Assembly (NCBI GenBank): GCA_963663225.1 | Contig: OY760142.1 | Coordinates: forward strand, 3,168,001-3,232,000 | DNA: 64,000 nt | DNA from: Nitrospirota bacterium | GTDB taxonomy: Bacteria > Nitrospirota > UBA9217 | Direction: 5' to 3' | Part shown: in pieces, positions 39,849-52,291 of the stretch | Layout of the letters: every line of letters begins with the position of its first letter | Position numbering within the stretch: the first letter of the stretch is position 1 | Program-made: the position numbers and the translations under genes | The notes under the pieces: model-generated | Told to the model about the DNA's origin: nothing | Databases searched by the model: none | What the model saw: only the letters and a program-made list of their open reading frames with translations

Positions 39849-41246
39849 TCACGTCGTTTTTCGCTTACCACACTTTGTCTGTGGAAATATTTTTCCCGGA
39901 TTCATAATATTATTCGGGTCAAGCGCATACTTGATTCTCTGCATGGCGTTTATCGTGGCCGTTCCGTACTCCATCGGCAAATAGGCAGCTTTTGAAATGC
40001 CGACGCCGTGCTCTCCGGTAATGCTCCCGCCAAAACGAAGCGTCGCTTCAAAAACTTCCTTCGCCGCTTCATGCGCTCTCGGCAGGTCCTCTTCGGCGGC
40101 CATGATATTCGTATGAATATTGCCATCTCCCGCGTGGCCGAAATTCACGATCAGAAATCCGTATCGTTGTGCGATGCCGTCTATTTCCCGTAAGATATCA
40201 GGAATTTTGCTGCGAGGCACAACAATATCCTCGTTCACTTTTTCGAGATTCAATGTCTTGAGCGCCGGGGAAAGGGCTCGCCGTGCCTTCCAAAGATGCT
40301 CCCGCTCCTCCTCGGACCGGGCCCTGTTTACACGGAGTGCGTTCAGGCCGGCCAGAATTTGCTCAATGCGGCCTGCCTCCCGCTCGGTCGTTTCCTCAGC
40401 CCCATCCACTTCGACAAGCAGCATGGCGGCCGCCCCTCCTGACACATCTTCGCCGAGGTGGGTTTCCACGGCCTTCAACGACGCTTGGTCGACAAATTCA
40501 AGGGCGCGCGGAATGATCCTGCTTTTCATGATCTCCAGGATGGCCCGTCCTGCCGTCTGAATGTCTGCAAAAAAAGCGGACAGCGTCTTGACGGTTTCCG
40601 GAAGCGGCAGGAGCTTAACGGTAATCAAGGTGACAACACCGAGCGTTCCTTCGGATCCGACGATGAGTTTTGTCAGATCGTAGCCCGCCACGCTCTTCAT
40701 TGTCCGCGCTCCGGTGGTAATAATCTCCCCTGTCGGCAGAACAACTTCCAGGCCAAGCACATAGTCCTTGGTCACTCCATATTTAACTGCACGGAGCCCT
40801 CCTGCGCATTCCGCGACGTTCCCGCCGATGGTGCTTGTATCGTGGCTGGCCGGGTCCGGAGGATAAAAAAGCCCCCGCGATTCCACTTCGAGCTGCAACG
40901 TTCCCGTTATTACTCCCGGTTCCACCACGGCAATGAGGTTGTCCTCATCAATTTCTCTGATTCTGTTCATCCGCTCAAGTGATAAAACGATGCCTCCGCA
41001 TACCGGCACTGCTCCGCCGGACATGCCTGTTCCTGCTCCGCGCGGGACCACGGGAATCCGCTGATGGTTGGCGAGGGAGAGAATGTCCGATACCTGACTT
41101 GCAGTCACAGGCAGAACCACTGCCCAAGGGAGCGATTCGTGGCGGGTGGCGTCACGCGCGTATGGCTCCAGCTCTGTGGATGCCGTGATAACGCCGGAAG
41201 GACCGACGATCTTTTTTAATTTATCGATAAAAGTTTTTTTAAGCAT
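39849..41246 (-). CDS. glcD: FAD-linked oxidase, glycolate oxidase GlcD-like subunit
   Basis: PRGAGTGMSGG, FYPPDPAS, GSEGTLG, FGHAGDGNIH, GEHGVG, DPNNIMNPGKIF. Confidence 0.85.
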   Translation of the reverse strand: MLKKTFIDKLKKIVGPSGVITASTELEPYARDATRHESLPWAVVLPVTASQVSDILSLANHQRIPVVPRGAGTGMSGGAVPVCGGIVLSLERMNRIREIDEDNLIAVVEPGVITGTLQLEVESRGLFYPPDPASHDTSTIGGNVAECAGGLRAVKYGVTKDYVLGLEVVLPTGEIITTGARTMKSVAGYDLTKLIVGSEGTLGVVTLITVKLLPLPETVKTLSAFFADIQTAGRAILEIMKSRIIPRALEFVDQASLKAVETHLGEDVSGGAAAMLLVEVDGAEETTEREAGRIEQILAGLNALRVNRARSEEEREHLWKARRALSPALKTLNLEKVNEDIVVPRSKIPDILREIDGIAQRYGFLIVNFGHAGDGNIHTNIMAAEEDLPRAHEAAKEVFEATLRFGGSITGEHGVGISKAAYLPMEYGTATINAMQRIKYALDPNNIMNPGKIFPQTKCGKRKTT

Positions 41247-42819
41247 ATACTCGATAATCAATGTCCGGGAAAATATTGTCCAAAAGTTCTATGCCGTCAA
41301 GCCAGTCCTGGTCGACGTGTCCCTCCCGGATATCATAATACAGTCTGGTGAAGCGGAGGATGTGTTCCTTCGTTCTGCGCACCGCATAATCGACATGGCT
41401 GCCAGTCTTCAAAATAAAAGCCCAGTCAGAGCTTTGCGCGAGAAGCACCTCCCGCGCCGCCTGGTTCAACGCCCGCTTCTGCAAGCCTTCGCTTTGAGAA
41501 AAAATCCTCGCCAGTTCCACCATCCGCTCAGCCGCTTTATGAAGATGCCGGTATATCCAGTCATTTGATCCGTCAAGCCATACTTCGGCATATCCCTTGT
41601 ATCCCCAACTCGACAGGGACGGGGCTGCAACCTGACATTTCGGGTTTTCCTGCAGATACTCGGATGGAGTAATCAACCGTACGGTTTTTTGATCGAATAC
41701 AGTTTTCCGGATCAGGTAATCAATCCAGTTGGGACCTTCGAACCACCAATGCCCGAACAGCTCGGAATCATACGGGGCAACAATAATGGGCTTTCGTCCC
41801 TGGAAGAGACCGGCCAGCCACTCCACTTGTTTTTCCCTGTTGAACAGAAAATTGCCGGCATGCTCCGCGGCCCTCTGCAGCGCCCAGTGGCGGATATAGG
41901 GGTCTTTTTGGTCCGACTCACCTGTAATTTTGTAATACTTGACGCCGAGATTGACGCGGATGCCGTCAGGATGAAGATACGGCTTAACATATTCATGATC
42001 CAGATCAAACCCCGCATCCCGGTAAAAGTCTCGATAATTATAATCTCCGGGATACCCCTCTATGGAACTCCAGACTTGCTTGGATGATTCAATATCCCTG
42101 CCGAAAGCCGCCACACCGGAAGGGCAATAAACAGGCGCATAGACACCGTACTTTGGACGCGGCAATGCATTGGAAATGCCGTGTGAGTCCGTAAAGAAAT
42201 ATCGTATGCCTGCATCCTTCAGAATTTCGTCAAGTCCCTCGTAATACCCGCATTCCGGCAGCCAGATGCCCCTGGGTGCCCGGCCGAAGTGTGTTTTATA
42301 ATGCTCCACGGCAATCATAATCTGCGCCCGTACTGCCTGTGGGTTCTGCATCAGCGGCAGAAAGGCATGCGTGGCAGCGCAGGTAATAATTTCCAACCTG
42401 CCGAGGTCCTGGAATTTGCGAAATGCCTGTATAAGATTGCATCCGTATTTTTCTTCAAATACGGAGCGGGCGTTTTTGAACATGTCTTCGTACATCCGGG
42501 CAAGCGGGTTGAATTCCGGCTGATCGGAAGTCCGGTCAATTTCTTTTCCGGCAAGCTCAATGAGCCTGTTAATATGCCGAATATACCGTTGCTGAAGCAG
42601 CGGGTCGACAAGCATCGAAACAAGCGTGGGCGAAAGGCTCATCGTGATCCGGAAATCAACATTGTCATCCACCAGCCCGTCAAAAACATTGATTAGTGGT
42701 ATATACGTTTCCGTTATCGCTTCGTACAACCAGTCCTCTTCCAGAAACCGGTCGTGTTCCGGGTGTCTTACATAGGGTAAATGGCTGTGCAGCACCAAAG
42801 CCAGATAACCTTTTTCCAT
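41239..42819 (-). CDS. GH57 1,4-alpha-glucan branching enzyme (DUF1957)
   Basis: LHSHLPYVRH, ETYIPL, WLPECGY, PYDSELFGHWWFEG, AQSSDWAF. Confidence 0.92.
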   Translation of the reverse strand: MEKGYLALVLHSHLPYVRHPEHDRFLEEDWLYEAITETYIPLINVFDGLVDDNVDFRITMSLSPTLVSMLVDPLLQQRYIRHINRLIELAGKEIDRTSDQPEFNPLARMYEDMFKNARSVFEEKYGCNLIQAFRKFQDLGRLEIITCAATHAFLPLMQNPQAVRAQIMIAVEHYKTHFGRAPRGIWLPECGYYEGLDEILKDAGIRYFFTDSHGISNALPRPKYGVYAPVYCPSGVAAFGRDIESSKQVWSSIEGYPGDYNYRDFYRDAGFDLDHEYVKPYLHPDGIRVNLGVKYYKITGESDQKDPYIRHWALQRAAEHAGNFLFNREKQVEWLAGLFQGRKPIIVAPYDSELFGHWWFEGPNWIDYLIRKTVFDQKTVRLITPSEYLQENPKCQVAAPSLSSWGYKGYAEVWLDGSNDWIYRHLHKAAERMVELARIFSQSEGLQKRALNQAAREVLLAQSSDWAFILKTGSHVDYAVRRTKEHILRFTRLYYDIREGHVDQDWLDGIELLDNIFPDIDYRVYA

Positions 42820-42896
42820 TCTTCCTCCGAGGAGAGCTGTGCAGAGCGCAGGTCGCAGGTGCGACCGTACGCAGGCGAAATTCTAGAGACCAAAAG

Positions 42897-42924
42897 AAAA
42901 GTCCATCCGCTTTGGATGGACTTT
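42897..42924 (-). terminator. Intrinsic terminator between the DUF4912 and GH57 genes
   Basis: AAAGTCCATCC-loop-GGATGGACTTT followed by a T-rich tract on the minus strand. Confidence 0.7.
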
Positions 42925-42993
42925 ACAATAAAAATCACTTCAGTACAAGAGTATTTCAACTGCTCAGGTACAAGCAAAAAACACGCCGCCGCC

Positions 42994-43920
42994 TTACCTC
43001 CGTCTTGCCCGCTGGCGGGAAAACATGCCTGGCGAGGTAATCCCTTGCAGGCGTCTGCGTTTCAGTATCTCCTGACTCTGAGGAGACGACAATCCGGTCG
43101 GGCCACCATAAAGCTGCAGAAACTCCTCATCCAGAAGCATCCATTCGTCATCCAGAATATCCGACACCCCATCACGAGGCATGGTAATGTAATTCGACCG
43201 GACCAGGGTTAAGAACTTCCCTTCGGGTGAAAGCAGTCCCAAATCAGCGCAGAAGGAGTGGGACGGCCTTCCAAAATCAAAATACCAGCTGCCGGTTTGT
43301 TCCGAAACCTCCTGATCGTAATACCCGATGGCATTCCTGCCATCAAACTGGACACCGGTTATGTCATAAACCCGGATGCAGAGTCTGCTGTCCCATCCGA
43401 ACCAATTCCGCTCCTTCGCAACCCGTCCCGGCGCCACTTCCCAGTATGCAAACGCTATAAACGGATCTCTCGACAAAAGAGTGATCTTTTCTTCTCCATA
43501 TGACAGGGGAAGGTCTCCGTGTGCCTCAACCATCGGCTGCAACGCAGGGCCGGTATAATACTTGGCCTCAGCCACCCGTTCCTGTGCTATAAATGGCTCC
43601 TCCGACTTCGGAGGAATTTTCCATTCAAGATTCGGCATGTCGGTTTTCCGAGTTTTTTCTACCGGTTCTTTTTTTATAGATTCAGCCTTCTGCACCCTGA
43701 AGTCTTCCGGAGCTTTATCCGATTTGCTCCCGATTTTCCTCGCTGCAAGCGAAATCTGCTGAACGTTTCTTTCCATTGCCGGTTTTTTGATGTCTATTTC
43801 TTTTTTCAGAAGTGCAATAATGTCCGCCTTTTTTGCTTTTGCTGGCAGAGAAACACTCCTCTCTTTAGCCAGGGCTTTGAGTTTCGCTACGGTCATAGCA
43901 GTCAGATCTGTTTTTTTCAT
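42994..43920 (-). CDS. DUF4912 protein with N-terminal Rho_N-like HeH domain
   Basis: MTVAKLKALAK...KKADII; LPLSYGEEKITLLSRDP...AYWE, LRVYDIT-like motif, RSNYITMP; typical neighbour of GH57. Confidence 0.85.
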   Translation of the reverse strand: MKKTDLTAMTVAKLKALAKERSVSLPAKAKKADIIALLKKEIDIKKPAMERNVQQISLAARKIGSKSDKAPEDFRVQKAESIKKEPVEKTRKTDMPNLEWKIPPKSEEPFIAQERVAEAKYYTGPALQPMVEAHGDLPLSYGEEKITLLSRDPFIAFAYWEVAPGRVAKERNWFGWDSRLCIRVYDITGVQFDGRNAIGYYDQEVSEQTGSWYFDFGRPSHSFCADLGLLSPEGKFLTLVRSNYITMPRDGVSDILDDEWMLLDEEFLQLYGGPTGLSSPQSQEILKRRRLQGITSPGMFSRQRARRR

Positions 43921-46209: not shown

Positions 46210-46308
46210 GGGAGAGGTTACGGTGCTGGTGCCCGTCCCGGACTTCAAATCCGCTGTTTCCCGGCTTCGGTCGGGAAAGGTGAGTTCGATTCTCATGCTC
46301 TCCCGCCA
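46210..46308 (+). tRNA. selC: tRNA-Sec (anticodon UCA)
   Basis: Acceptor GGGAGAG/CTCTCCC, D arm with 4-nt TGGT loop, anticodon loop CTTCAAA (TCA at 46245-46247), long variable arm TTTCCCGGC-TTCG-GTCGGGAAA, T arm GTGAG-TTCGATT-CTCAT, encoded GCCA end. Confidence 0.93.
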
Positions 46309-46372: not shown

Positions 46373-47131
46373 TTATTCAATCTTCCTTACCGTCCAGAAG
46401 TCTTCAGCGTAGTTATTATTTTCTATAAACTCATACGGCATCCAGAAGTACCCACCTTGTCCCCAATCTTCTCCCCATGAGTTACGGATAAGGAACATTC
46501 CTTTAATATCGTCGTAACCTACGGCTAGAACAGCGTGACCGCCTAACATGGATTCGCTTCTTTCCGGCATAGGCATAATACCAGTCTGAGAAACTTCGTT
46601 AGACTCGAAAGAATCAAATACAGAAAAACCGAATACAAACGGGTATCCGTCAGCTAAACAGTATTTCATGTTATAAAGTGATTCTTGATCGGTGTCTATT
46701 CTATGGTAAGAAATTACGTGATATTTCTCTCCTTCTTGATAAGCTTCTTGAGAAGGTTCCACGGCGAATTGGTCTATATCATAAGGCCAAGTTTTTTCAA
46801 GGCAAGCACCGTACTGAGCTATAACTTTCATTCCGGTTCTTATTTGTGCGCCGGAGTCCTCGTCTATGTTACCTTCCTTCTTCCGCTCGTTGTAATAAAT
46901 AAAGAGCCTTGAAAAGTCCACGGATTTACCCAAGACACGCTTTTCAAGAAACTCCATTGCACTACCGATCGCGTTCGCCGTACAGCTTCCCAGGTCTCCT
47001 TGATTTTCAATCTGAGTACAGAATTTTCTTAGGTCAACTCTTGTAGGAAGGACTTTAGGTTCTTTACGAATAGCCTTAAATTTCTTATCCCGGAAATCGG
47101 GTATGTCTCTTTTCCATCCGTACTTTCTCAT
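46373..47131 (-). CDS. Papain-family (C1A, xylellain-like) cysteine protease
   Basis: YGWKRDIPDFRD pro-like N-terminus, QGDLGSCTANA, FSRLFIYYNER, GGHAVLAVGYDD, IRNSWG..WG..GYFW. Confidence 0.93.
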   Translation of the reverse strand: MRKYGWKRDIPDFRDKKFKAIRKEPKVLPTRVDLRKFCTQIENQGDLGSCTANAIGSAMEFLEKRVLGKSVDFSRLFIYYNERKKEGNIDEDSGAQIRTGMKVIAQYGACLEKTWPYDIDQFAVEPSQEAYQEGEKYHVISYHRIDTDQESLYNMKYCLADGYPFVFGFSVFDSFESNEVSQTGIMPMPERSESMLGGHAVLAVGYDDIKGMFLIRNSWGEDWGQGGYFWMPYEFIENNNYAEDFWTVRKIE

Positions 47132-47265
47132 TCTTTTACCTCACAAGGAAACTGCTGGCAGCTCATCCTAGCTTTTACTTGGATATTCCAATCAAAGTAA
47201 ACTTTCTTAGGTGGGTCTGCGAAGTGTAAATTTAGTACAAATATTACGGAGAATGCCAACGTCAT
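47128..47265 (-). CDS. Small 45-aa protein with hydrophobic N-terminus (MTLAFSVIFVLNLHFADPPKKVYFDWNIQVKARMSCQQFPCEVKE)
   Basis: Read by hand; fills the gap exactly, its TGA overlaps the protease ATG (ATGA), and it overlaps the upstream gene's 3' end in another frame. Confidence 0.45.
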   Translation of the reverse strand: MTLAFSVIFVLNLHFADPPKKVYFDWNIQVKARMSCQQFPCEVKE

Positions 47266-47863
47266 AATTAATTGGTTCCCATTGAAATTCTTCCCACAAT
47301 ACTGAAGGTGAAATTCTTGTTATGTTCCACTTCTTAAAAATAGGTTCCCCTGCATACCTGTCCGTGTGCTTATAAATATCAGCGACGTAAGCAGAGCAGA
47401 ACCTTGCTCCGGGCCAATGTAAAGGTACGGGCCAGCGTCTAATAAAAGGGAAAATACCTTCAAGTGGTGTCAGAATATCCACCAGTTTTCCAAAAATTCC
47501 TGAATAGTCGTAAGGATTACCCAGGAGTGATACGCCGTACTTAAAACCTTGCTGGATCGCTGTCATGTCCACGCCGTTAGGTGTACGACGTATCACTAAA
47601 CAATGTTTATTATCGAAAAATTTACTTAGGTTAGATGGTACAATACCTTCTACTGTAGCCTCCAATCCCTTGCCTTCACCAACCACGTAAACAACGTGCC
47701 CCGGTTCCTTACCGTCTATCCCAACCAACTTACCAAAGCCTGTAGACTCTTCCATGCTCTCAAAAAATGAAATCCCATCTGAGAGCATAGAATCATCCGT
47801 GTGCATAAATAGAGCATCACCCGCTATGTAGTCAACTCCATACGTAGGTTGTTTGGATAACAA
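47207..47863 (-). CDS. Permuted papain-like NlpC/P60 (YiiX/YaeF-like) amidase/acyltransferase
   Basis: GD.LF, N-terminal His (GHVVYV), G.PYDY, FCSAYVADIY (Cys after His), ISP; GGAG RBS before TTG. Confidence 0.75.
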   Translation of the reverse strand: MLSKQPTYGVDYIAGDALFMHTDDSMLSDGISFFESMEESTGFGKLVGIDGKEPGHVVYVVGEGKGLEATVEGIVPSNLSKFFDNKHCLVIRRTPNGVDMTAIQQGFKYGVSLLGNPYDYSGIFGKLVDILTPLEGIFPFIRRWPVPLHWPGARFCSAYVADIYKHTDRYAGEPIFKKWNITRISPSVLWEEFQWEPINYDVGILRNICTKFTLRRPT

Positions 47864-47864
47864 T

Positions 47865-48047
47865 TTATACTCCTGTTACGTCAGAATCTTTTGCGAAAAG
47901 CAACCCAAAAGAAGTAAGGATTGCTATAATATTTGCCAAAGTATCACTAGTAAAATGAGTGATATCAAGTACCTGAGTAGCAGCCAAAACAGCACCCACT
48001 ACACCAACAACCGTCGTTTTCCAGTTTTTAATTATTAATGACCACAT
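47865..48047 (-). CDS. Holin-like two-TM protein
   Basis: KNWKTTVVG...two TM helices...GLLFAKD, a pattern of small phage holins; AGGAGG RBS. Confidence 0.75.
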   Translation of the reverse strand: MWSLIIKNWKTTVVGVVGAVLAATQVLDITHFTSDTLANIIAILTSFGLLFAKDSDVTGV

Positions 48048-48055
48048 ATTTCCTC

Positions 48056-48481
48056 CTAGACCGCCGTCCCACCGGCAGCGTTATTTACTATGATCGCCAA
48101 AGCGCGAAGCTCAGTCAGTTTTGCAAGCTCATCCGTTACGCCGTCAGTATTGAAAATCTCAAGAATCTTGTCCTGATACGCAAACAGCAAAGCCGTAATA
48201 GCCGCTTGTTCTGCAAGCGTAAGTCCGGAAGTCTTGATATAAGACTCAACCAACGTGACTAGCGTAGTCGTATCAGGAATAAGTTTTCCGTCAATACCGT
48301 CAACAACCTTCTGTGAAATTTCCTGTACTGGTTCTGCGTATTCAGGATGAAGAACCAAAGCCGTCTTAATTGCTACTTTCATCAATTCCTGTACTTTCGG
48401 CATATTCAGAACATCGGTAATATGCAAATACTCCAAAATCTTGTTAAACAAATCAATGATAATCCCTAGAACCTTGCTCAT
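48056..48481 (-). CDS. Hypothetical alpha-helical phage protein
   Basis: ATGA coupling with the DUF5675-like gene. Confidence 0.7.
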   Translation of the reverse strand: MSKVLGIIIDLFNKILEYLHITDVLNMPKVQELMKVAIKTALVLHPEYAEPVQEISQKVVDGIDGKLIPDTTTLVTLVESYIKTSGLTLAEQAAITALLFAYQDKILEIFNTDGVTDELAKLTELRALAIIVNNAAGGTAV

Positions 48482-48858
48482 ACTCCATTCCTCCGTATAG
48501 TTAAATTAAATTCTTTTACTCCACTCAATCGGTGCATCAACAATCTAAAAGCTTTTTCTGAATTACTTATTGATTTATCACCTCCAAATTCTGTCCCGAC
48601 CAAAATACAACCCAACGTGTCTTTAGGATAATTTCCTATATGTATCTGTACATCTGTCCTATCTGGTACGTCCTGTAATTCATAACAGATACCGTGTTTA
48701 GGAGAATTTACTAACTTGCCTTTATAAGTACCTTCAGGAATGCAGGAGATGTTTTCTTTATTGTCTTTCCAAGGAAGCTCTAGAGTAACAAGAAAAGGCA
48801 CCACATCAGCAAGCACTCCAAAAGTACAATCATTCGCATACCAACGAGTGAGAATCAT
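48478..48858 (-). CDS. DUF5675-like protein (L,D-transpeptidase-like; putative endolysin)
   Basis: TFG.L, TLELPWKDN...SCIPEGTY, VPDRT...IHIGNYPKDTLGCILVG; start placed at ATG 48858 (ATGA overlap). Confidence 0.85.
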   Translation of the reverse strand: MILTRWYANDCTFGVLADVVPFLVTLELPWKDNKENISCIPEGTYKGKLVNSPKHGICYELQDVPDRTDVQIHIGNYPKDTLGCILVGTEFGGDKSISNSEKAFRLLMHRLSGVKEFNLTIRRNGV

Positions 48859-49094
48859 TTCCCAAATAATCCCTTTACCCAGGTTGCCGCGCCCCATACT
48901 ATCAAAGTAAGAACGGCTACAATTATTGAACCAACAGCGGTCTTTGTCGCGGTTGAAGTAATTCTGTCTCTGGTAATTCTCAAATCCTTAATGAAGCAAT
49001 GATCCTGATAATGCTGTTCTCTTTCTACATAGAAAGACTTCATTTCATTTCTCATTACTTCTTGAATTGCCAATTGCAGTTCTTCTTTGGTCAT
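48855..49094 (-). CDS. Small protein with C-terminal TM helix (lysis-region membrane protein)
   Basis: AAGAAGGA RBS before ATG 49094; GSIIVAVLTLIVWGAATWV. Confidence 0.7.
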   Translation of the reverse strand: MTKEELQLAIQEVMRNEMKSFYVEREQHYQDHCFIKDLRITRDRITSTATKTAVGSIIVAVLTLIVWGAATWVKGLFGK

Positions 49095-49096
49095 GG

Positions 49097-49246
49097 TTAA
49101 TCCTTCTTGGTGGTTAATTGCGGGCAGTAGCATGGATTAAACCATGTAAGATTTATTCCATTCCAGTAGCAATATCCGCATATACAGTGATAATGATTAA
49201 GTCCGGCCTGTTGCTCAAGTTCACGATTACACTTAGGGCAGTTCAT
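49097..49246 (-). CDS. 49-aa Cys-rich zinc-ribbon protein (MNCPKCNRELEQQAGLNHYHCICGYCYWNGINLTWFNPCYCPQLTTKKD)
   Basis: Read by hand; ATG overlaps the ATP-grasp TGA, stop lies 2 nt before the next ATG; CPKC...CICGY motif. Confidence 0.75.
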   Translation of the reverse strand: MNCPKCNRELEQQAGLNHYHCICGYCYWNGINLTWFNPCYCPQLTTKKD

Positions 49247-50505
49247 TTAAAATCAATACCTACCGACTTGGCTTTTTCAATATATTCTTTGGTAGTCTCG
49301 AAACAATGCTCATCATATTCTATGGAATCTGCCGATACAGATTCAGCGTTCTTTAAGGCCATGCCTTCAGCTTCTTCTAGCGTCTTTCCTATTCCCACGG
49401 CAGAACCTACTATATCCCACCCTTCCTGTGGTATGTATTTCCATGAATTATTTATCCGACAAAGATTCTGAAATTTAAGATACGGATATGCGCTTTCAGG
49501 AAATTCTATAACAGTAGGTTCCTTTTCTGCCCAAGTAGAAGTCAGGTTTATTTCGCATACATAAGGCGCTACCCATTCAAGATTGATTTTCTTTCCTGTA
49601 GCTATGGCGTAAACGGCCTGATTGAAATTCTTACAGTTTACCGTTATAGAAGCAGACGGAGGCATACCAGCCCTCATCGTAGCGTCATTCCAGTAAGGTT
49701 TTTTGTCTTTAGCGGTTCTTACTTCAGTTGAAAACATTCCGCGAGGCTTAGTCTTTTTGTAAAAAGGAATGGACTTTAACAAGACTTCCCTGATTGGCTT
49801 TGGCAGGTTGTTTGTTTTCTCAACTTTCGCCGTATATGACTTCCCTTTTTTCTCAAATCCCCAAAGGCAGGTATCGAAATAACCTTGATCCGAAATAAAA
49901 TGATCCGATCCTGCCTCTTCAGCTTCTATGGTTTCTTCTATAACACCCTCTATCCGAGAAGCGTAAGCCCCTGCTTTATAGTAAAGATAGTTAAGTCGGC
50001 TTTCCGACTGAGTGTAATTTACATGCTGAAAAGTTTCTGTTAGTCCTCGAAATCTTGAAATCTTCACAAATCTCTTTTCGTTTTTTCTTAAAAACTCATC
50101 GAGTGCATCTAAACCGTAAAAAGGTTCATAGGGAATTACCGGAAGATTCATTTTCTTTAATTCTTCCTTAAACCGTATACGGTCTACTTCTAGGATTTCA
50201 GAATTACCCATTGAGAATACGTTGTATCCTTGGTTTCGGAGTTCTATAGCCATATCTCCGTCACCTACATCAAAAAAGCATATCAAGTCTCTCTTAGGGT
50301 CTAATTCTTTCTTGGCTGACCAGAAATCATAGATATTATTTACTCCTGGTAGACCTTCCCCGATCATGGCCTTGTCAACTCTCGGTAATGAACCTTTGTA
50401 TGGAGTGTAATAATTTACCTGCTTAAAATCTTCAGCAAGCTTTTGAGCGATAAAAGAAAACGGCCCATTGTCCCACATTAATACATTGATATTAGAAAGC
50501 TTCAT
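49243..50505 (-). CDS. Divergent PurD/GARS-like ATP-grasp ligase
   Basis: LEVDRIRFKEELKKMNLP, FVKIS, VIEETIEAEE, DATMRAGMPP (cf. EFNCRFGDPE), C-domain VGSAVGIGKTLEEA. Confidence 0.75.
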   Translation of the reverse strand: MKLSNINVLMWDNGPFSFIAQKLAEDFKQVNYYTPYKGSLPRVDKAMIGEGLPGVNNIYDFWSAKKELDPKRDLICFFDVGDGDMAIELRNQGYNVFSMGNSEILEVDRIRFKEELKKMNLPVIPYEPFYGLDALDEFLRKNEKRFVKISRFRGLTETFQHVNYTQSESRLNYLYYKAGAYASRIEGVIEETIEAEEAGSDHFISDQGYFDTCLWGFEKKGKSYTAKVEKTNNLPKPIREVLLKSIPFYKKTKPRGMFSTEVRTAKDKKPYWNDATMRAGMPPSASITVNCKNFNQAVYAIATGKKINLEWVAPYVCEINLTSTWAEKEPTVIEFPESAYPYLKFQNLCRINNSWKYIPQEGWDIVGSAVGIGKTLEEAEGMALKNAESVSADSIEYDEHCFETTKEYIEKAKSVGIDFK

Positions 50506-50506
50506 A

Positions 50507-52291
50507 TTATTGATTGTTCCCCATTACTTCATTGAGACCAGTCCCAAGTGCCCTGGGAGCAATTTGGATTGATTTGTCTAAAAGCTTTTGCATACCTGGG
50601 CTGTCAACTTCCATTTTGGAGGCTGACATGGCTATCTGCTTACCGGCCTTCGTAGTGGTTAAGAATTTAGCTAACAATGCAGAGGAAACTATTGTGCCGG
50701 CGGTAGTGGCCGTTTCCATTGGGTGCGTCATCATGCCAGCTGCGGATGCCACCATTCCTCCCTGTAGCGTTAATTCCGCTGCCCTTGCTCCGGTTGGCGG
50801 ATTTTCCTTAAACTGACCTGCGCGTTTTACTCTCTCCATAAGCGATGCAATTCCAGTTAAATGGCTTACCTCTTCATCAGAGAAAAGTCGGTTCTTCTTT
50901 TTAACATTTTCTTCATAAATCATGTTTTTTAGAGAGGTAGCAAATTTCTGAGGACTAAACAAACCCATTTCACCAGCCCCCTTTACGCCACTGGCCTTAT
51001 CGTATGCCTCCTGCACCTTTTCATACTTTACGTTGTATCGTTTATATGATTCATTAGCTACTTTCAGCTTATCGCTTATGTTGGATAGTGATTTTTCACT
51101 TAACTTGTCTATATCCGAATCAACCGCGTGTTTGAGACTCCCCAGGACACCAACGGCCTCAATATTTCCTTGAGCGCGGGCGGTTTCTTTGGCTACCCCT
51201 AGACCTTTTCGGAGCGTCCACAGATCATCAAAAGTAATATTTCCTATTTCCTTTGGAGGCTGTTTAAATTTGCTCGTATCATAGAGCAGATTTTTAACGA
51301 TTGACTTCGTTTTCGTATCCTGCATTGACTCGAAAATAGAGGGGTATCGTTCTACTAATTCCTTTGCAGCTTTATGGGTGTCCTGCGCTTTCGTGGTTAC
51401 ATTAATTCTCTCTGCTTCTTTCTGAACACCATGATAAAGACTGTCAACAAATTCTTTATTTCCCCAAAAGTTTGGTTTGCTAGGATTGGCAATATACTGA
51501 CCTAACGTATGTTTGGCTGACTCGTCTGCGGCCTTATATTGCGTCTCCCTGAATTTACTAATCCCCAAAGACCCTGGCAACTTCTCTAAAGTTGTTTCAA
51601 GCCGCTGAAGATTTGGGGCGTTTAGTTCTTCGCCAAGAGTCAAGGGTATGCCTTCTTTATCTGCCAGATTTCCAATGGCTGATTTTGTAGCCGGTTTAGA
51701 AATAGCATTTACGGTTTTACCCAAACCGGACAATGCCAACGATCCCCCAGAACCTAAGGCGCCACCTAGGGCAGCATTTAAAGCCCTGTTATCTCCTTCT
51801 CCGGTAAATCTGCTTGCCCCCAATGCCGCCTGAGAAACTCCCGCTGTCAATGCTCTTTTGGCGACTCCACCCGCAATACCACCAGGCACTAATGCCGTAG
51901 GAAGTGTTTCCCCTAAAAACTCACCGGCACTTGCAGCCATGCTGTTAGCTTTTAAGGGTTTCATCATGCTTCTAGCTTCTTCACCCTCGCTAGTAATTCG
52001 CTTTACCGTTTCTGGATTAACCAAGCCAAGCTTTTCTCCTAATATGGACCCGGTTTGTTCAATACCCTTCCCGAAATCATAGAGGCCAGCACCAACTCCT
52101 GTCAGAAACTTTTCCGTACCGGACATTTTCTGTATTTCCGGTTCCATCACATCATCTCTGGTTACTTTTTTTGCGTTTGGTTTTCTGGTTCTAGAAGAAA
52201 ATATCTCTTTCATCTCATCATCAGTAGGAGGACGATCTGCGCTAATAGTCAAGCTTTCGCCTTCAGGACTTGTGATCTTATACTTAGGCAT
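50507..52291 (-). CDS. Putative DNA ejection / internal virion protein
   Basis: MPKYKITSPEG N-terminus typical of phage ejection proteins; Gly/Ala-rich hydrophobic segments; position after the tail gene. Confidence 0.65.
   Translation of the reverse strand: MPKYKITSPEGESLTISADRPPTDDEMKEIFSSRTRKPNAKKVTRDDVMEPEIQKMSGTEKFLTGVGAGLYDFGKGIEQTGSILGEKLGLVNPETVKRITSEGEEARSMMKPLKANSMAASAGEFLGETLPTALVPGGIAGGVAKRALTAGVSQAALGASRFTGEGDNRALNAALGGALGSGGSLALSGLGKTVNAISKPATKSAIGNLADKEGIPLTLGEELNAPNLQRLETTLEKLPGSLGISKFRETQYKAADESAKHTLGQYIANPSKPNFWGNKEFVDSLYHGVQKEAERINVTTKAQDTHKAAKELVERYPSIFESMQDTKTKSIVKNLLYDTSKFKQPPKEIGNITFDDLWTLRKGLGVAKETARAQGNIEAVGVLGSLKHAVDSDIDKLSEKSLSNISDKLKVANESYKRYNVKYEKVQEAYDKASGVKGAGEMGLFSPQKFATSLKNMIYEENVKKKNRLFSDEEVSHLTGIASLMERVKRAGQFKENPPTGARAAELTLQGGMVASAAGMMTHPMETATTAGTIVSSALLAKFLTTTKAGKQIAMSASKMEVDSPGMQKLLDKSIQIAPRALGTGLNEVMGNNQ

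Follow-up and report, generated by a model that had tools for sequence, protein, structure and literature searches.

ATP-grasp ligases form an acyl-phosphate and then an amide. Among described enzymes, the closest to the one studied here is PurD, the glycinamide ribonucleotide (GAR) synthetase (GARS; EC 6.3.4.13), for which the available text of PMC2978367 names human R13, E14, N229, D295 and E297 as substrate or ATP residues. We analysed a 64,000-nt window of a Nitrospirota bacterium genome (GCA_963663225.1, contig OY760142.1, positions 3,168,001 to 3,232,000) and were particularly interested in a prophage gene run at 46373..52291, the core of which is a 420-aa ATP-grasp enzyme encoded on the minus strand at 49243..50505. 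A sequence-only reading of this DNA had joined a PurD-like ligase, a Zn-ribbon and three enzymes with a cysteine nucleophile into one late amide ligation/removal module. The ligase, identified from the profile of its relatives, a predicted model and residue mapping, is a PurD-derived ATP-grasp variant that is new to the literature searched, and the nine-gene module as a unit was without support. Taken as a whole, the balance tips slightly towards a two-block reading, in which a PurD-derived amine-acid ligase is followed by a lysis cassette and two cargo peptidases. The fold, the residue pattern, the family size and the neighbourhoods are the observed part of this explanation.

A PurD-derived ATP-grasp enzyme and its viral family

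The 420-aa protein had no match in Pfam, PHROG or NCBIfam. A single-sequence search of the PDB also gave no match, and scanning viral contigs with a pattern made from this one protein gave no relative. Thirteen relatives with 33-55% identity were collected, and their profile matched PurD structures in the PDB (best 2yw2, E 2e-13). With the AlphaFold model (pLDDT 94, pTM 0.92), GAR synthetases led the Foldseek ranking (2yw2, E 4.7e-22, TM 0.72, 17% identity, 452 columns), followed by PurK, PurT and biotin carboxylases (TM 0.56-0.67). The N, B, A and C domains of the model superposed on GARS over the full length.

The ligase was aligned with nine PurD sequences, and residue roles were taken from PMC2978367. 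It lacks the PurD GGRE motif (R13, E14), the GLAAGK B-loop, the nine-residue GPNTGGMG loop and GDPE, and has GPF, RFRGLTET and a 9-residue deletion at those motif positions. In the glycine site, R292 is kept (R278), D217 is changed to Glu (E218), and D295 and E297 are replaced (RAGMPP). The K219 equivalent is kept as K220, that of E288 is D274, and E261 stands where PurD has Gly and PurT has the metal ligand Glu267. In 218 family sequences, E106, K148, R153, E218, K220, E261, D274, R278 and P282 were conserved at 100% (rounded). The ATP, metal and acyl-phosphate residues as aligned to PurD positions (R109, K148, E197, K220, E261, D274 and R278) reached 99-100%. E106, R109, K148, R153, E157, E197, D201 and P282, together with the mapped positions, were conserved at 98-100%, and D12 and D79 at 93-94%. 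The ATP and carboxylate residues are thus near-invariant, and the ligase therefore appears to be under selection as an ATP-dependent carboxylate activator and not as PurD.

The ligase did not match TIGR00877 (purD) or PF01071 at E 0.1, and the host genome carries its own purD (E 4e-85). Because the phosphoribosylamine and glycine sites of PurD are lost, the purD model is unmatched and the host purD is separate, the 420-aa protein is very probably an amide ligase and not PurD. The structure and active-site comparison with GARS that the sequence-only reading had proposed has thus been run, and by residue pattern the enzyme is not an ordinary GAR synthetase. The name "PurD-like ATP-grasp ligase" given there holds for the GARS fold and the ATP-grasp residues and fails for the PurD substrate motifs.

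The family is large and mostly viral. A profile search of 1.84 billion representatives gave 941 clusters (50% identity) at E <= 1e-30, and 1263 at E 1e-10, a weaker set that may include PurD itself. The three Atlas clusters nearest to the ligase were 96-100% viral, the closest being auto-named "biotin carboxylase family". Only 2 of 50,697 deposited phage records matched, both of them hot-spring viruses assembled from metagenomes, in which the gene sits between portal and terminase. Species genomes were also scanned with close relatives, and no match was found. Across 401 genomes of the host phylum, a strong match was present in this genome only, with distant relatives in two more. In a sister group that matches GARS models below the purD cut-off, the GPxTG loop is retained. 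In a quick tree of 41 hand-picked rows (19 family, 13 sister group and 9 PurD), the ligase group and PurD fell on opposite sides of a branch with SH-aLRT 100.

Twelve longer members were read. Three of them had a HAD-like N-terminal domain, seen as a weak TIGR00099 match only, and two had an intein-like insert, which in both begins straight after the D274 motif. An interruption of about 350 residues was observed in P0043, P0055 and seven further family members of 758-786 aa. One family member is fused to an InPase domain, which according to the available text of PMC5512222 occurs in virion-packaged polyvalent proteins. No description of the family was found in literature searches, which reached few subscription journals and did not open supplements; the available parts of PMC7824862, PMC9503650 and PMC5512222 mention only other ATP-grasp families.

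The position of the gene was surveyed in 40 groups, with 89 of 103 large neighbours scanned. A named terminase, portal, capsid, connector, tail or virion neighbour was present in 21/40 groups, and in 9 more the ligase follows, within 600 nt, an unannotated ORF of about 1000-2500 aa. The contexts span podo-, sipho-, myo- and crAss-like phages. Together with the ejection gene next to the ligase in this prophage, these family contexts bear out its assignment to the late, virion region. Misfits exist, such as L030, where the gene lies among methylase and NusG-like genes. Two phage groups also have O-antigen ligase (Wzy_C) genes close to the PurD-like ligase (L044:4055-5251 and L065:4117-5301).

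Cysteine enzymes and recurring partners at ligase loci

Neighbourhoods were compared at the best 80 of 89 viral ligase loci, forming 40 groups at 70% identity; 66 of the 80 have at least 3.2 kb downstream. C1A peptidase, C92-like enzyme and the 49-aa Zn-ribbon ORF were each found at 0/80 loci, and DUF5675 at 1/80. No small CxxC ORF directly followed the ligase at any of the 80 loci. Moreover, none of the 110 (of 180) Cys- and His-containing ORFs scanned within 5 kb across the 40 groups belonged to a papain-fold family by Pfam. At 33 further, mostly short metagenome ligase loci, the counts were C1A 0, C92 0 and DUF5675 1. Reciprocal scans were also carried out, and the ligase was near 0/22 viral loci of C1A relatives and 0 of the best 80 of 181 DUF5675 loci. 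A pattern scan gave no viral relatives of the C92 protein; the C92 test, which used a two-sequence profile and Pfam, is weak because only one homologue exists. Close relatives of the C1A peptidase (39-54% identity, L085-L106) are often on contigs labelled giant-virus bins.

The lysins behind the ligase vary between loci (GH108, Amidase_2, lysozyme or DUF5675). The available text of bioRxiv 10.64898/2026.04.11.717860 places DUF5675 among C82-like lysin candidates, and no other lysin family was matched among 52 scanned prophage ORFs. The DUF5675 protein is thus likely the endolysin (C82/L,D-peptidase-like), filling a slot that relatives fill otherwise, and the C92-like and C1A peptidases are likely cargo genes. 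Late operons of phages are normally packed this tightly, and the packing is no proof of functional coupling.

Some observations weigh against a complete separation of the ligase and the peptidases. The near-identical loci L218 and L219 carry sister-group ligase, HNH-like, zincin-like and C1A-like genes in a row, L167 has DUF5675 near a sister-group ligase, and distant C92 genes could be missed by the two-sequence profile and Pfam. With these included, the ligase and the lysis/peptidase blocks are very likely unlinked. The claimed coupling of ligase, Zn-ribbon and three cysteine enzymes found no recurring linkage in either direction, and the neighbourhood counts support the alternative given with it, that ligase and lysis genes are unrelated neighbours.

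Two other families recurred beside the ligase. One is a zincin-like protein of about 130 aa with invariant GD, HExxE, D, Y, H and E, whose gene was within 1 kb of the ligase at 46/80 loci (23/40 groups). The other is a SpeD-like decarboxylase, found at 13/80 loci (9/40 groups), 12 of them within 1 kb and most with the ES cleavage motif. Either partner was present at 56/80 ligase loci and neither in 10/40 groups; the partner profiles were built from the same loci, and the partner counts describe this sample. Reciprocally, the ligase was found at 46 of the best 80 of 352 zincin-like loci, plus one partial. In L146-L149, L155, L156, L165, L174, L207 and L211, the zincin-like gene lies between probable small and large terminase genes, with no ligase within 6 kb.

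The zincin-like protein was modelled with pLDDT 94.5, and its topology fits a helix motif after a three-stranded sheet. Weak fold matches included MATCAP, SPRTN, selecase, IrrE/PprI, YbeY and the EF-P hydroxylase YfcM, and the protein may instead be a non-hydrolytic metal enzyme. In some loci the protein carries an additional Erv1/Alr-like domain that has a CPC motif, as a fusion; these are L009:5399-6112 (PF04777, E 2e-6), L011, L017-L019, L022, L036 and L037. A complex prediction of the ligase of a relative with its zincin-like neighbour (L053/L140) scored 0.00, which speaks neither way. For amide ligation and removal, the idea thus fails with these cysteine peptidases and is left standing at the family level, with a probable metallo-hydrolase partner that is absent here.

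A SpeD-like gene is also present in the host genome, and another is directly before a cellular sister-group relative (L306). There, at L306:6253-9504 (G214 C52), a SpeD fragment is followed by a PurD-like sister-group ligase and a SET-domain gene, away from purine genes, with a similar arrangement in L308. This SpeD/ligase/SET cassette, one clear case, hints at protein modification.

Proposed amidation and rival explanations

We propose that a large phage lineage rebuilt PurD into a writer that, during assembly, would attach a polyamine or a decarboxylated amino acid by an amide bond to proteins of the virion or proteins that are injected, the SpeD-like protein supplying the amine and the HExxE zincin-like protein acting as eraser or maturase. 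This scheme is speculative and, taken in full, on balance unlikely. By ATP-grasp chemistry and the alignments, ATP would convert a carboxylate to an acyl-phosphate, which K220 and R278 would hold in place while E261 and D274 bind Mg. Conserved acids (D12, D79 and E106) would line the cleft that has opened up between the N domain and the A domain, and the amine entering there would attack the acyl-phosphate to give the amide. This active-site reading is predicted from alignments. Loss of the phosphate-binding motif and the cover loop, together with conserved acids at the nucleophile side, suggests that the amine is cationic and that a large substrate would fit.

As judged from the neighbours, the amine would come from a SpeD-like decarboxylase, phage-encoded in some relatives and host-supplied here. 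In about half of the relatives, the zincin-like protein, which is missing from this prophage, would then trim the product or reverse its formation. Phage SpeD homologues produce agmatine or putrescine (available text of PMC9992855), and an amine ligase acting late is therefore favoured. That the amine is of the polyamine type, a decarboxylated amino acid or a polyamine, has slightly less than an even chance. The target, guessed from the gene position, would be a virion or injected protein; a virion protein is a doubtful assignment.

Several results weigh against this scheme. Between 33 and 34 of the 80 zincin-like loci have no ligase within 6 kb. The zincin match itself is weak: the best hits are minimal zincins and reach Z 6.0, with an rmsd of 3.1 across 82 residues, Foldseek gave no E value better than 0.2, the Atlas TM was about 0.52, and the motif is HExxE with a later H and E, compared with HExxH in zincins. 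SpeD-like genes occur in only the 9/40 groups, and since they are common in phages (available text of PMC9992855), this count stands without a background rate. The HAD-like fusions, seen in three of the twelve longer members, would instead suit a substrate that is phosphorylated. Finally, this prophage has neither a zincin-like nor a SpeD-like partner, and the zincin-like gene is absent from the whole genome. Because a complete prophage in a closed host genome lacks both usual partners, the ligase can, as this suggests, work alone.

The rival that survives best is one in which the ligase makes a small-molecule or cell-wall amide, such as an amino acid joined to a polyamine or a polyamine on peptidoglycan D-glutamate, for counter-defence or superinfection exclusion. 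E218 replaces the glycine-binding Asp of PurD, and a free amino acid may therefore still be the acid. Polyamines sit on the D-Glu alpha-carboxyl of Negativicute peptidoglycan (available text of PMC10628300), and glutathionylspermidine synthetase/amidase is a precedent for a ligase with an amidase (named in PMC10318531; chemistry from general background). Among the literature matches listed, none concerned an ATP-grasp enzyme in polyamine-peptidoglycan linkage. Against this rival, the 110 scanned ORFs included no racemase. In phages of podo-, sipho-, myo- and crAss-like context, moreover, the genes around the ligase are those for terminase, portal and ejection, a setting unusual for exclusion genes that a lysogen expresses. 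We consider this explanation unlikely.

Modification of phage DNA or a nucleotide at packaging, with an amine or amino-acid group added to protect the genome, would suit the descent from a nucleotide-pathway enzyme, the frequent neighbourhood of terminase and portal, and the HAD-like and InPase fusions. The phosphate-binding GGRE is lost, however, and the conserved residues outside the ATP site are mostly acidic. In addition, no base-oxidising or thymidylate-synthase-type partner recurred among the scanned neighbours, which gave one 2OG-Fe oxygenase and four methylase matches. Such a role is quite improbable.

It is very unlikely that the ligase activates bicarbonate or formate, as PurK, PurT and biotin carboxylase do, in order to carboxylate or formylate an amine. 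With E261 the PurT-type metal ligand is back in place, these three enzymes come next after GARS in the fold search, and the nearest Atlas cluster bears the biotin carboxylase name; on the other hand, GAR synthetases rank top over the full length, the ExK motif matches DHK of PurD, and intermediate relatives keep the GPxTG loop.

The one-system model of the sequence-only reading, with the C92-like or C1A enzyme replacing the zincin-like partner, can draw on the single tightly packed operon, the usual partner missing from this prophage and the C1A-like gene near a ligase relative in L218/L219. Against it, C1A and C92 genes were absent from all 80 and all 33 ligase loci, including the 26 of 82 loci that have neither usual partner, and in this prophage the peptidases are 1.4-2.9 kb off, behind lysis genes. 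In the closest relatives of the ligase (52-54% identity; L001, L108-L110), the zincin-like gene adjoins and ordinary lysis genes follow. We give this model hardly any weight. That the ligase is an ordinary GAR synthetase serving as an auxiliary purine gene was rejected as extremely improbable: PurD is the best structural and profile match, and virome papers name phage purD as a metabolic gene (available text of PMC11097641 and PMC12043954, on genes that may or may not belong to this family), but the substrate motifs are lost, the purD model is unmatched, the quick tree places the ligase group on a branch apart from PurD, and no pur genes were among the neighbours scanned.

The gene run and its prophage

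All ORFs of the run are on the minus strand, in the order that had been described, directly behind a gene for a 594-aa DNA transfer/ejection protein (50507..52291; PHROG 770, E 6e-11; PHROG 26400, E 2e-5), which ends 1 nt upstream of the ligase. Behind the ligase is a Cys-rich ORF of 49 aa with CxxC and CxC motifs, the "Zn-ribbon" (49097..49246; NF001605 at E 0.061 only). It is followed by a small protein with one C-terminal hydrophobic segment (48855..49133, likely start 49094; PHROG 6420, E 2.5e-4; hydropathy peak 2.17 at residue 65), likely a lysis-cassette membrane protein. The DUF5675 protein (48478..48897, likely start 48858; PF18925, E 3e-28) and a 141-aa protein without a family match in Pfam, PHROG or NCBIfam (48056..48481) come next. 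A 60-aa hydrophobic protein (47865..48047; hydropathy peak 1.73, no family match) is likely a holin, named from size and position.

The permuted papain-like (C92-like) enzyme (47207..47863; PF05708, E 1.3e-4) precedes a 45-aa ORF (47128..47265). The final gene before the att site is that of the papain-family C1A peptidase (46373..47131; PF00112, E 8e-18). The 45-aa ORF may not be a gene, because it overlaps the C92 gene by 59 nt and its product had no match in Pfam, PHROG, NCBIfam or any ligase locus.

With the longest ORFs, the junctions from the ejection gene on are +1, -4, -37, -43, -4, +8, +1, -59 and -4 nt. By hand count, the internal ATGs at 49094 and 48858 turn the -37 and -43 overlaps into +2 and -4. 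The spacing of at most about 8 nt that had been claimed thus holds at most junctions and fails at the 45-aa ORF. The ORFs called holin and Zn-ribbon are present, the names having been taken from composition, with no solid family match. The catalytic Cys and His residues claimed for the three enzymes are present in all of them. The C1A peptidase has the set Q44, C50, H199 and N217 and belongs to PF00112 (65.7 bits, cut-off 20.7). The DUF5675 protein has the pair H86/C97 and belongs to PF18925 (98.4 bits, cut-off 26.7). In the C92-like enzyme, H56 comes before C156, the permuted order, and PF05708 scored 22.5 bits, under the curated cut-off of 27.

The prophage is complete, 43,586 nt long, in a host genome of a single 3.26-Mb contig (G000), and runs across the contig ends. 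Its insertion site is tRNA-Sec (46210-46308). The 24-nt att core on the plus strand (46285..46308), at the 3' end of this gene, marks the left end of the prophage, where the ligase-to-C1A gene run sits. Copies of the repeat, the last 24 nt of tRNA-Sec, are at G000 3214285 and 2870, and the integrase adjoins the second copy; the two ends of the prophage are thus at window 46210-46308 and G000 1628-2893. The GC content changes from 0.51 in the host flank to 0.39-0.44 in the prophage. Upstream of the ligase region, Pfam and PHROG matches identified SU10-type portal, capsid, adaptor and DNA-transfer genes, and for this reason the prophage likely belongs to a short-tailed phage. Tail-fibre-like unannotated genes were observed between terminase and portal, not after tail genes (G000 3233770-3239090; L329:2773-8090). 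Two minus-strand genes, for an IS1-like transposase and for a ClpP-like SDH protease, lie between the early genes and the terminase region (G000 3242719-3244764; L329:11722-13764). Left of the prophage, the host genes at window 41239-43920 presumably encode a glycoside hydrolase family 57 protein and a DUF4912-type protein, which they resemble.

Significance and comparison with known systems

The ligase family is large, mostly viral and nearly absent from deposited phage genomes, and a common phage late-gene chemistry has therefore lacked a model system. Where relatives retain more of the PurD pattern, they match GARS Pfam models and could be miscounted as purine "auxiliary metabolic genes". 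If virion proteins are amidated with polyamines, the modification would be new for viruses, and the enzyme might be put to use for labelling proteins. In the full writer scheme, this would be a viral post-translational modification system so far undescribed, which annotation could mistake for purine metabolism.

Compared with DUF5675/C82-like phage lysins, the protein in this run has PF18925 above the cut-off and a His/Cys pair, and its gene lies between membrane-protein genes; nothing unusual was found, and its lytic role is a predicted one. As in LysX/LysW, known from general background, an ATP-grasp ligase gene is followed by a small Cys-rich ORF. However, the 49-aa ORF ends in TTKKD, without the acidic EDWGE-type tail of LysW, and is not conserved beside the ligase. 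A LysW-like carrier was rejected on the missing tail and on the 0/80 loci with a small CxxC ORF after the ligase.

Glutathionylspermidine synthetase/amidase offers an analogy in how it works, being generally known as an ATP-dependent polyamine-carboxylate amide ligase with an amidase. It belongs to another ATP-grasp branch and was not among the fold matches listed for the ligase; the amidase there is a CHAP domain fused to the synthetase, and the present family has a separate zincin-like protein as partner. PurT, PurK and biotin carboxylase share the next-ranked folds (TM 0.56-0.67) and, at the position of PurT Glu267, a Glu, but in this comparison by fold and one position the ligase scores lower to them than to GARS. 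The nearest described system is PurD (TIGR00877; PDB 2yw2, 1gso and 2qk4), with which the ligase shares the full-length fold (TM 0.72) and the equivalents of K219 and R292. At 17% identity, however, the ligase is without GGRE, GLAAGK, GPNTGGMG and GDPE, has Glu for D217, and is found in virion and not purine operons.

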